From positions 1 through 31,468 of the forward strand of contig JACQID010000003.1 in NCBI GenBank assembly GCA_016198685.1: a stretch of DNA of 31,468 nucleotides. Reading direction: 5' to 3'. The notes under the pieces were generated by a model that did no database searches, was not told where the DNA came from, and saw nothing but the letters and a program-made list of their open reading frames with translations. This document shows positions 9,042-11,650 of the stretch, one piece after another (positions within the stretch are counted from its first letter, which is position 1; every line of letters starts with the position of its first letter). The translations under genes and the position numbers were made by a program. This DNA is from Candidatus Aenigmatarchaeota archaeon. Its GTDB lineage: Archaea > Aenigmatarchaeota > Aenigmatarchaeia > GW2011-AR5.

Positions 9042-9926
9042 TTATTTTACAAGGGCCGCAAAATAGGCATCATTATAAGTTTCAACATATTGCTTATGCA
9101 TTTCCAATGCGTTGTCTACTGGCACAACTTGGAACGGGACTCGCAGCTTTGTTAATTCCTCCTTCATCCGGTCTGCATATTGACGATGAAGTTCTAAACC
9201 ATTCTCAATCACAGAGTCAACTGCCCGCATAGTTTCCCGATTCGTAAACAATAGTTTGCCTTCTTGTCCATAATACTCGGGTTGATAATCGGAATTCGTA
9301 ATGACTTGGGACAATTCAAGTACATAAAAGTGATTGTTTATGGATCTGCCGCCGTAATCTATTGAGCCTGTAGGCACATCGAGAATCACGGCTTCTGTAG
9401 GGTGTATGCGGGGAGCAAAAATTCCAAATCCTATGCCTTCTCCGCATAATGCTCTTTCCGGATACAAGAAATGCGGCAAATGTTGTATTTCTTCCTTAGG
9501 AACGGCCAAATTTATCATGCCGTAATAGGAATCTGGCGCAGGCGCTAAATATATTGGATGAATCTGAGCGTCATTTTGTGCGTGGATATAGTGGTTTTCG
9601 CTATTATTATTTCCCGGGACGATGCCTTGATCAAACATTTTTGCGATTTTTTGGGCATGCCGAGCAGGAGGATCCGCCATTACGGCAACAGTGTTTTGAG
9701 GTGCCTGCCCATTTCTATTACCGACCCCATGATAGAGATTTTGAGGAAGGGGATAATCAAAAGGAGGATCAAACCTCATAGTACCAAAGTTCATTTCAAG
9801 TGCCTTATCATGACGGGTAGCGTAGACCAAGTCTGCAAATGCGCGCGCATTTCGTTGTCTATAAGCTTTTTGTATCCCTTGAAACTGTTCATGCGATATA
9901 CATATACCGCTACTCTGTAATACCAT
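9042..9926 (-). CDS. Hypothetical protein, candidate ADP-ribosyltransferase/Tpt1-like fold
   Basis: 294-aa ORF with its own TTTAAA box (9952-9957); motifs LVYATRH, PLPQNLYHG, QGIVP, IYLA, IHPTEAV. Confidence 0.6.
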   Translation of the reverse strand: MVLQSSGICISHEQFQGIQKAYRQRNARAFADLVYATRHDKALEMNFGTMRFDPPFDYPLPQNLYHGVGNRNGQAPQNTVAVMADPPARHAQKIAKMFDQGIVPGNNNSENHYIHAQNDAQIHPIYLAPAPDSYYGMINLAVPKEEIQHLPHFLYPERALCGEGIGFGIFAPRIHPTEAVILDVPTGSIDYGGRSINNHFYVLELSQVITNSDYQPEYYGQEGKLLFTNRETMRAVDSVIENGLELHRQYADRMKEELTKLRVPFQVVPVDNALEMHKQYVETYNDAYFAALVK

Positions 9927-9974
9927 AGTAACTACTCAGAAATAACAAATATTTAAAGCATTAATTCCACAAGT

Positions 9975-10190
9975 CTCGGATCGGGAGCGGGGGGATCCCG
10001 TGTTCTAATGCGTTGAAGAGGAAAAAAGTAGGGAGCGAATCTGTCTTATCGCAGGGGTAACATTCACTTTGTTATCAATGTTTCAGGCAAAGCGATCTTT
10101 GTTTGCACACTGCCCAGAAAAGATGACTGAGCTTCCATCAGCTTCCCGAAGCCCGCCATCTTTTCATGATCGATGGCGGGATGATTTACA
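9975..10190 (+). ncRNA. Structured non-coding element resembling an IS200/IS605 TnpB right end (reRNA/omega-RNA-like), orphan
   Basis: No credible ORF; several stems; terminal GAAGC-CCGCCATC/GATGGCGG-GATGATTTAC hairpin (9-bp stem 10152-10160/10172-10180) resembles the GAAGCCCC...GGGGTAGTTCAC-type ends of TnpB elements. Confidence 0.45.
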
Positions 10191-10219
10191 AGGTTATATG
10201 CGGTAAATTCGGGTAATCT

Positions 10220-11650
10220 TCAGCCCTTCACATTGCCCATGGGCACGAGCTTCACGCCTTTAGTTGAGATGCCCGCCTTGTCCACGCTTTCAATGACTTC
10301 GTCTATGTCCTTGTAAGCGCCTCCTGCTTCTTCGGCAACGCCGGGCATGCTCGTTGAGCGGACATATATGCCGCGCTTCTCCATGTCCTTGAGAAGTTGC
10401 TCGCCTCTCCATAGGTGCTTGGCTCTTGCGCGGGACATCGTGCGGCCGGAACCATGGCACGTAGTTCCAAATGTTTCCTGCATCGCCCTGTCGGTTCCTT
10501 TGAGAAGATAAGACCCCGTTTCCATGGAGCCGCCAATTATTACAGGCTGGCCGAGTTTTCGGTATTTTTCAGGAACTTCGTCTCTGTTTGTGCCGAAGGC
10601 TCTTGTCGAGCCTTTCCTGTGAACCAATACCTTCCTCTTTTTTCCGTCAATGGTATGATCTTCTATCTTGGCTGTATTGTGAGCTACATCATAGACCTGA
10701 TGCATGCCAAGCTCTTCAGGGCTCTTCTTGAAAACTCCGGAAAATGCCTCTCTTATTCTGTGTAAAATAACCTGCCGGTTAGCAAATGACATATTTATGC
10801 CGCATTTCATTGCTGAAAAATAATCCTGGCCTTCCTTGCTCTGGAAGGGCGCGCAGGCAAGTTCCTGGTCAAGAACCTCAATGCCGTATTTCGGCATTAC
10901 TTCAAGGAATTTTTCAAGATAATCTGTCCCTATTTGATGCCCAAAACCGCGGCTTCCGCAGTGAAACATAATGACTATCTGATCTTTCTGTACTATCCCG
11001 CATGCTTTCGCAAATTCTTCATCGTGTATTTCTGAAGCGCGCTGGATTTCAAGATAATGATTTCCGCTTCCTAATGTACCAATTTGCGACAGCCCGCGTT
11101 TCATTGCTCTGTCGGAAACTTTGGAAGAATCGGATTCCATACGGCCGTCTTCTTCAGTCATCTTCAAATCTTCTTCCCAACCATATCCCTCTTTAACTGC
11201 CCAGCGTGCGCCTTCTTCAGTAACCTCCCGGAACTTTCCTTTATCAAGCTTGACAAACCCAGAAGAGCCTACGCCTGCGGGTACAAGCTTGAAGAGCGCT
11301 TCTACAAGCTCGCGTATCTTGGGCTTGACGTCTTTGACAGTAAGATTTGTAGTAACAAGTCTCATGCCGCAGTTTATGTCAAATCCTATGCCGCCCGGAG
11401 AAATTATGCCCTCCTTTAAATCAAAGGCGGCAACGCCGCCTATAGGAAAGCCATACCCGAAGTGACCGTCTGGCATGCACATTGCATGATTAATAATTCC
11501 CGGAAGCGTGGCCACGTTTGCTATTTGATTATAAACTCCTTCATCCATGGCATCAACAATTGTTTTGCTTCCATAGATTCTGGCAGGAACGCGCATTTTG
11601 CCCTGCTTTGGATATTCCCAGACAAAGTCCGAGATTTTATTGAGTTGCAT
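10220..11650 (-). CDS. rtcB: RtcB RNA-splicing/repair ligase
   Basis: PDGHFGYGFPIGG, GFDINCG, GTLGSGNHY, HCGSRG, HNTAK, HRKG, GGSM, HGSGR, EEAGGAYK. Confidence 0.97.
   Translation of the reverse strand: MQLNKISDFVWEYPKQGKMRVPARIYGSKTIVDAMDEGVYNQIANVATLPGIINHAMCMPDGHFGYGFPIGGVAAFDLKEGIISPGGIGFDINCGMRLVTTNLTVKDVKPKIRELVEALFKLVPAGVGSSGFVKLDKGKFREVTEEGARWAVKEGYGWEEDLKMTEEDGRMESDSSKVSDRAMKRGLSQIGTLGSGNHYLEIQRASEIHDEEFAKACGIVQKDQIVIMFHCGSRGFGHQIGTDYLEKFLEVMPKYGIEVLDQELACAPFQSKEGQDYFSAMKCGINMSFANRQVILHRIREAFSGVFKKSPEELGMHQVYDVAHNTAKIEDHTIDGKKRKVLVHRKGSTRAFGTNRDEVPEKYRKLGQPVIIGGSMETGSYLLKGTDRAMQETFGTTCHGSGRTMSRARAKHLWRGEQLLKDMEKRGIYVRSTSMPGVAEEAGGAYKDIDEVIESVDKAGISTKGVKLVPMGNVKG

Follow-up and report, generated by a model that had tools for sequence, protein, structure and literature searches.

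A probable gene-less relic of an IS200-group insertion sequence downstream of rtcB in an Aenigmatarchaeota archaeon

Introduction

The spacer downstream of rtcB in the Aenigmatarchaeota archaeon studied here probably holds a single decayed, gene-less internal-deletion derivative of a TnpA-only element of the IS200 group. The window, by which we mean the whole 31,468-nucleotide stretch analysed, is contig 7 of a 0.93 Mb DPANN (Aenigmatarchaeota-type) assembly of 8 contigs that is 93.7% complete. Judged from its sequence and that of its relatives, the derivative would occupy positions 9952-10189 on the + strand (~238 bp), and we put the probability that it is a stranded, immobile relic of this kind at roughly 0.85. 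Insertion sequences (IS) of the IS200/IS605 family move by single-strand 'peel-and-paste' transposition, and their Y1 HUH transposase recognises subterminal DNA hairpins. In the history proposed here, an internal deletion of about 410 nt would have taken out nearly all of tnpA and kept part of the left end (LE), ~21 codons from the end of tnpA and the whole right end (RE), leaving a terminal-only element like a palindrome-associated transposable element (PATE). With no transposase in the genome and a broken left-end hairpin, the copy is most likely immobile and without a function of its own. Its effect on the neighbouring genes would be passive at most: the motif at its left boundary shares bases with what is probably the TATA box of a 294-aa gene, and the sequence downstream of rtcB, with its T-tracts on the - strand, would be that of the element.

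An earlier note on this DNA had read the same spacer as an orphan TnpB-type guide RNA. Here, we describe the parts of the element, its intact parent and its gene-less relatives, and weigh the guide-RNA reading against three others.

The locus and its folding

The spacer (9927-10219, 293 nt) is intergenic, bounded by the start of a 294-aa ORF (9926..9042, - strand; ATG at 9926), which has no Pfam match, and the stop codon (10220-10222) of rtcB (11650..10220, - strand; PF01139, E 2e-170). The only ORF listed inside it is a spurious 45-aa TTG frame, in agreement with the earlier note, which had seen no credible ORF. Inspection of the sequence also confirmed the position of every motif that had been pointed out: the palindromic TTTAAA (9952-9957); the stems CGGGA/TCCCG (9982-9986 and 9996-10000), AACATT/AATGTT (10059-10064 and 10077-10082), CAAAG-CGAT-CTTTG (10088-10101) and CTGA/TCAG (about 10126-10143); GAAAAGATG (10117-10125), which is complementary to CATCTTTTC at 10157-10165; GAAG (10148-10151), directly before a perfect 9-bp stem of CCCGCCATC and GATGGCGGG (10152-10160 / 10172-10180) with an 11-nt loop; and the terminal ATGATTTAC (10181-10189, + strand), which follows this stem and ends the element at 10189.

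The spacer had been called rich in stems. This holds for the terminal hairpin but not for the spacer as a whole, whose fold is no better than those of dinucleotide shuffles (MFE z -0.84 on the + strand and -0.30 on the - strand); among the stems listed above, only the terminal 9-bp hairpin exceeds chance. Across eight related right ends, 98.6% of the cells of this stem pair and 6/9 pairs are compensatory, a level of covariation that 0/500 shuffles reach and that no slid register comes close to. The AACATT/AATGTT stem is not kept in the alignment with the intact relative introduced below, and the CTGA/TCAG and CAAAG/CTTTG stems fall within former tnpA coding sequence. As for the mutually exclusive pairing that had been proposed between GAAAAGATG and CATCTTTTC, the complementarity is there, yet we do not claim the structure, as relatives show no clear covariation; A-rich Lys codons opposite the T-rich loop recur in them.

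Structure of the element

Read along the + strand, the element would open at TTTAA (9952-9956), a motif that, as TTTAA or TTTAG, stands just before or at the start of every related left end; it marks this boundary in IS copies of the genomes G001, G049 and G048 and in PATEs of 184 bp. The distal left end that follows (9958..10001, +) is degenerate. Within it, the LE inner hairpin, which in relatives is AGCGGGGAGAT / AGCGGGTGGAT, can be recognised from its 3' arm, matched by AGCGGGGGGAT (9986-9996); the 5' arm and the loop have been replaced in the window, and the CGGGA/TCCCG palindrome occupies their site. Taken alone, this distal alignment is weak, with 11-16 of 500 shuffles reaching its score, and it is supported by colinearity. 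Owing to this weak homology over 9958-10001, the left boundary at 9952-9957 is tentative.

The homology is far more distinct in the LE internal box (GTTCTAATGC...GTAGGGAGCGAATCTG..., 10002..10054, +), which aligns with the intact IS on contig 25 of G001 (G001:C25) over 55 columns, with a local score of 49 against a shuffle mean of 17.3 and sd of 2.5 (z about 12.5), and gives 84.6% identity over 39 nt by BLAST. The hairpin GGTAGGG/CCCTACC of the intact IS has decayed here via three C-to-T changes. Positions 10055..10087 (+) align weakly with the region upstream of tnpA and may be a remnant of the IS promoter and SD sequence (GTAACATTCAC ~ GTAGCATTCGC), from which the TATA-like CTTAAAAA box of the intact IS is absent. 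The deletion junction would lie immediately after this remnant, at about 10087/10088.

From there, a tnpA pseudogene fragment of the last ~21 codons (10088..10149, +) can be aligned with G001 and with gene-less relatives. It begins with CAAAGCGATCTTT (10088-10100), a 13-nt exact match to the 3' coding end of G001 tnpA, and reads QSDL...QK(K)MTELPSAS, compared with QSDLSVCQTKLIEFSSP in G001 and QKKLIEFSSTS in the gene-less relatives; the window sequence carries a 1-nt frameshift, and its stop codon has changed from TAA to CGA.

The right end (10148..10189, +) comprises GAAG, the 9-bp hairpin and ATGATTTAC, and three lines of evidence bear on it. The first is the covariation given above. The second is the match to G001: the 3' arm and terminal 17-mer (10174-10190) are 94% identical over 17 nt to the end of the IS, with a score of 29 against 15.6 (sd 2.0) for shuffles (z about 6.6). 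The third is a covariance model, R1, which was built from four bona fide IS200 right ends with the window and its nearest look-alikes left out, and whose best match in the window is exactly 10148-10189 (18.4 bits, E 0.0088). R1 used a four-sequence, short-loop alignment; multi-family RE alignments were unusable because MAFFT split the stem or shifted its register. The earlier note had recognised in the hairpin, preceded by GAAG and followed by ...TTTAC, a right end of the IS200/IS605 family, and both the covariation and R1 bear this out. It was also right in seeing a non-autonomous element in + orientation, with no nuclease or transposase gene alongside.

Between the element and the rtcB stop codon stands a 30-nt flank (10190..10219) that has no homology to the flanks of other copies. 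On inspection of 9940-10200, the element runs from TTTAAAGC... to ...GATTTAC between flanks, AACAAATA and AAGGTTAT, that bear no relation to each other, there are no terminal inverted repeats and no target-site duplication, and the element is too short for a transposase. The empty site before insertion would read ...AATATTTAA|AAGGTTAT.... Of the subterminal left-end hairpin, only the 3' arm is recognisable, its 5' arm, loop and outer stem being lost; this marks a decayed member and is no argument against an IS200 origin.

The intact parent

An intact IS200-type element of 699 bp is found in the same genus, on contig 25 of G001 (locus L026). Its 156-aa ORF is a Y1_Tnp protein (PF01797, E 1.9e-26), CGCCCGCCAC-TTCA-GTGGCGGGATTATTTAC comes straight after the tnpA stop codon, and the left end before tnpA contains GTTCTAAAGC...GGTAGGGAGCGAATCTGCCCTACC. 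The left boundary, ...|TTTAGAACCCGC, is fixed by two G001 copies whose left ends are identical but whose flanks differ. The match between the window and this element was first reached by searching relatives with the spacer and its flanks, in which rtcB also matched; the two sequences are colinear and in one orientation (+) over the LE box, the tnpA tail and the RE.

The order of parts in G001:C25 is not peculiar to it. In at least ten related IS copies, found in the same order and in further DPANN MAGs, the right end stands directly after the tnpA stop, without tnpB. The RE in related intact elements opens with GA(C/A)GC, has a stem of 8-9 bp around a loop of 4-15 nt, and closes with TAGTT(C/T)AC or ATxATTTAC; GAAG-CCCGCCATC-(11 nt)-GATGGCGGG-ATGATTTAC of the window conforms to this.

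Gene-less relatives

A scan of metagenomes with the window-type RE pattern gave 18 contigs, 0/18 of which carry tnpA nearby, and these fall into two groups. The first is a 180-184-bp element with near-identical copies at different loci (groundwater metagenome contigs L091:5504-5687, L094:753-936, L104:1022-1205 and L105:378-557, all on the - strand); it is laid out as TTTAAAAACCGC..., an LE hairpin TCTCCCTGC-TTCA-GCGGGGAGA, GTTCTAAAGC, the tnpA tail and the RE. The second, of 250-380 bp, has a different interior and, in some copies, nested extra palindromes (group B examples on groundwater metagenome contigs L097, L093, L099 and L101). The right end common to both is GCCCGCCAC...GTGGCGGGATGxTTTAC. 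In a 107-bp version in the same-genus genome G003, the initial 22 nt of the LE are joined to the tail and the RE. None of these gene-less relatives has kept as much of the parent IS as the window copy, which would therefore be a separate deletion derivative.

Right-end matches of the R1 type number 6-20 in each sister genome. The host genome has a single copy of the element, whereas family members are multi-copy in sister genomes and stand at different loci in metagenomes.

Recurrence beside rtcB

An IS200-type right end is found downstream of rtcB in 4/5 genomes of the genus, at a distance of 30 nt in the window (10190-10222), about 205 nt in G004, where the contig ends (L012, G004:C72, 1-229), about 310 nt in G001 (L009, G001:C68, 312-694) and about 1.05 kb in G003 (L025, 470-1612). 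With 6-20 copies per 0.8 Mb, this recurrence is unlikely to be chance, and it counts against the reading as a stranded relic. The right ends concerned are of differing subfamilies, and the ORFs between or beyond them are non-homologous (294 aa; 67 aa; 322 aa plus 271 aa). Simple vertical inheritance is not supported for these copies: those of the window and G003 belong to group A and that of G001:C68 to group B, and the G004 copy has a different tail. A landing-pad effect is possible, as is an old insertion renewed by later copies; mobile elements that target mobile elements have been described (PMC3119063). A stronger form of this idea, in which the retained hairpin or the TTTAC/TTTAA motifs would make the region downstream of rtcB a recurrent site of recombination or insertion that shuffles cargo genes beside rtcB, the RNA-repair ligase gene, and perhaps donates TATA boxes to them, seems very unlikely to us.

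The genes at these loci gave further observations. The 271-aa ORF that follows the element in G003 (L025:1630-2445, +) matches AvrPphF-ORF-2 (PF09143; E 2.3e-6, 28.1 bits with a cut-off of 25), an ADP-ribosyltransferase-type effector family. The 322-aa ORF of G003 (L025:551-1519, +) and the 294-aa ORF of the window have no Pfam match and are mutually dissimilar. At three further rtcB loci of the family (L019, L021 and L022), tblastn splits RtcB into two segments, residues 2-64/67 and about 46-65 to 476, with adjacent or overlapping coordinates, so that the gene may be frameshifted or interrupted by an insertion near residue 64, unless the assembly is at fault there.

Possible retention by the host

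The right-end hairpin of the window is still a perfect 9 bp despite the decay of the LE hairpins, which counts against an inert relic and could hint at retention. The host might keep the hairpin as a 3'-end stabiliser or terminator of rtcB, or as part of the promoter context of the 294-aa gene, with the left end supplying or abutting a TATA box. The hairpin stands 30 nt past the rtcB stop and is followed by T-tracts on the - strand. On the other side, TTTAAATA (9950..9957, - strand) precedes the start codon (ATG) of the 294-aa ORF by 26-31 nt, a spacing typical of a leaderless archaeal promoter, and is likely its archaeal TATA box. TTTAAA had been taken for a promoter of a + strand transcript, and is better read as this TATA box on the - strand. 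In G003, the LE terminus likewise stands 30 nt upstream of the ATG of a different ORFan, and the geometry of the two loci suggests insertion next to TTTAA in TATA boxes. Furthermore, the RE segments of the window and G003 are 84.5% identical, while the 4-fold sites of rtcB are saturated between the window and its congeners (39-42% identity).

On the other hand, 85-98% identity in this RE is also seen between numerous unlinked copies from further genomes and from metagenomes, so that its conservation belongs to a recently active mobile family and not to a host function; given these copies, we dropped purifying selection on the 71-nt island of tail and RE shared by the window and G003 as the main explanation. 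The differences between the window and G003, read off the alignments and not computed, are all transitions, as would fit recent divergence. In G001 and G003, moreover, the hairpin stands after other ORFs and not beside rtcB, and in the window the other hairpins have decayed. We regard domestication as a cis element as quite improbable.

Search for a transposase and further copies

The copy could also be competent for transposition and merely await TnpA in trans, from unassembled DNA, a co-resident relative or a virus. Its RE is intact and scores with R1 as a right end of the family, the TTTAA boundary motif is present, and among the sister genomes and the metagenomes its gene-less relatives are clearly mobile. 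Against this, the LE has lost its outer stem as well as the 5' arm of its inner hairpin, and the genome has a single copy and no tnpA that we could find, although one may lie on missing DNA. In the 93.7% complete genome, no protein matched TnpB (PF07282, PF01385), Y1 (PF01797) or IscB (PF14239, RRXRR) over threshold, and tblastn with the TnpA and TnpB of relatives gave no match, the best being TnpB of G003 at E 0.42. A genome-wide search for tnpB, tnpA and iscB, which the earlier note had proposed as a check, was therefore negative at these thresholds, as was that for further copies of the terminal hairpin: BLAST of the spacer returned no significant second copy in the genome, and R1 at genome scale gave no match at E <=0.1, a limit at which the element's own copy is likewise unlisted. 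The DNA of the window occurs in groundwater metagenomes; contigs of four DNA runs, which come from one study and of which some may be non-independent or the assembly's own source, contain no variant, joint or empty site. A still-mobilisable copy is very unlikely.

Two other sites in the host genome were noted. G000:C3:7570-7656 (L087 about 1445-1532) may be a second tiny IS200 relic, AACGCC...TAGTTTAC, which is not significant overall; its part at G000:C3:7625-7656 scores 15.5 bits with R1 (E 1.8) with a broken stem, and it is preceded by AAAAACTTAAAAAGT, 15 nt that recur exactly in the left end of an IS200 from Woesearchaeota (L080). At G000:C6 about 122,700-122,810, between divergent genes, the palindromes CCACCGCT-TTCA-AGCGGTGG and then ATTTTCAC are followed by CACATCGAATTCC...GGAATTCGATGT; the palindrome pair is flanked by TTTAAA boxes and has a likeness to IS200-type hairpins in a different architecture. 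As a further IS200 relic it was rejected as not significant.

The guide-RNA reading

In the earlier note, the spacer was an orphan TnpB reRNA or omega-RNA, transcribed on the + strand from about 9980, with a scaffold ending at the RE and the 3' flank AAGGTTATATGCGG... serving as guide for a TnpB acting in trans. In its favour, the architecture GAAGCC-hairpin-GG-xxxTT(T/C)AC is common to this RE and TnpB elements of the same archaeal family, and PATEs with omega-RNAs exist elsewhere (PMC10055086). TnpB genes occur in 10/44 genomes of the family, including same-genus G003 (G003:C28, L060:634-1827, +), with seven matches in G047 and 19 further loci within L058-L077. Their right ends have the form GGAAGCC-hairpin-GG(G/T)(C/T)AGTTCAC, their 3' scaffold is conserved and covarying, and they close with TAGTTCAC, as do the TnpA-only IS200 elements. 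The consensus GAAGCC(hairpin)GGxTAGTTCAC, which the earlier note had given, is seen in both kinds of element, whose end architecture is thus shared.

The interior of the window element tells the two apart. The 100 nt upstream of its RE are the tnpA tail and the IS200 left end, not a tnpB 3' end, and BLAST against 20 tnpB loci gave no match. A second covariance model, R2, was built from the 150 nt ending at the RE of 10 TnpB elements of the family; its stems covary and comprise 31 base pairs. As a sanity check and no more, it recovered the G003 sequence, one of those it had been trained on, at 163 bits. R2 has no match at the element (10040-10189), its best in the window being 7.9 bits (E 2.6) elsewhere, and it finds nothing elsewhere in the genome. 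The IS promoter box is lost, the tRNA/tmRNA scan of the window found none, and Rfam gave no match over the whole window at the gathering threshold and chance matches only at E up to 10 on 9850-10300, both strands. The Rfam library presumably includes HEARO, the IscB omega-RNA, although the tool itself did not name it. An IscB omega-RNA thus has no match on either strand in these Rfam searches, nor has PF14239 in the genome, and the putative guide is the 30-nt flank that precedes the rtcB stop codon. With no tnpB, iscB or tnpA in the 93.7% complete genome to provide an effector, no scaffold and an interior derived from tnpA, the guide-RNA reading fails and can practically be set aside.

Relation to known systems

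What looks like a hairpin-rich orphan RNA in a reduced DPANN genome would on this analysis be transposon debris and not a guide RNA. For Aenigmatarchaeota-type archaea, the analysis establishes the ends shared by one IS200 lineage and the gene-less elements derived from it (TTTAA/G ... GACGC-hairpin-TAGTTCAC); this family appears to have been purged from the host genome and still thrives in sister species. Beyond correct annotation the significance is small, as gene-less IS200 relics are already known in archaea.

Three known systems can be compared with the element. One is IS200 itself (TnpA-only, ~700 bp, Y1 HUH), represented by G001:C25, with which the window shares, by homology and in colinear order, the internal box of the LE, the 3' tail of tnpA, and the hairpin and terminal motif of the RE. 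The window differs from it in lacking ~410 nt, including almost all of tnpA, in its decayed promoter box and LE hairpins, and in an RE loop of 11 nt instead of 4. The reRNA cassettes of TnpB elements (IS605/IS1341) share the same RE family, GAAGCC-hairpin-GG-...TT(C/T)AC, but the window has no homology to a tnpB 3'-end scaffold and the genome has no TnpB. The third comparison is with PATEs, which are known from Haloquadratum walsbyi, including terminal-only IS605-type derivatives that arose by core deletion (PMC3119063), and have also been noted in Geobacillus stearothermophilus (PMC10055086). Like these, the window element is too short for a transposase, has no terminal inverted repeats or target duplication, carries near-terminal palindromes related to a full IS, ends in a conserved terminal oligonucleotide (...TTTAC) and would have originated by core deletion with a C-terminal coding remnant kept. 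Unlike the PATEs described, it would derive from the TnpA-only IS200 group rather than from a TnpB (IS1341-type) element, and so lacks an omega-RNA module; it is a single copy with an eroded left-end hairpin, and its host is a groundwater DPANN archaeon.
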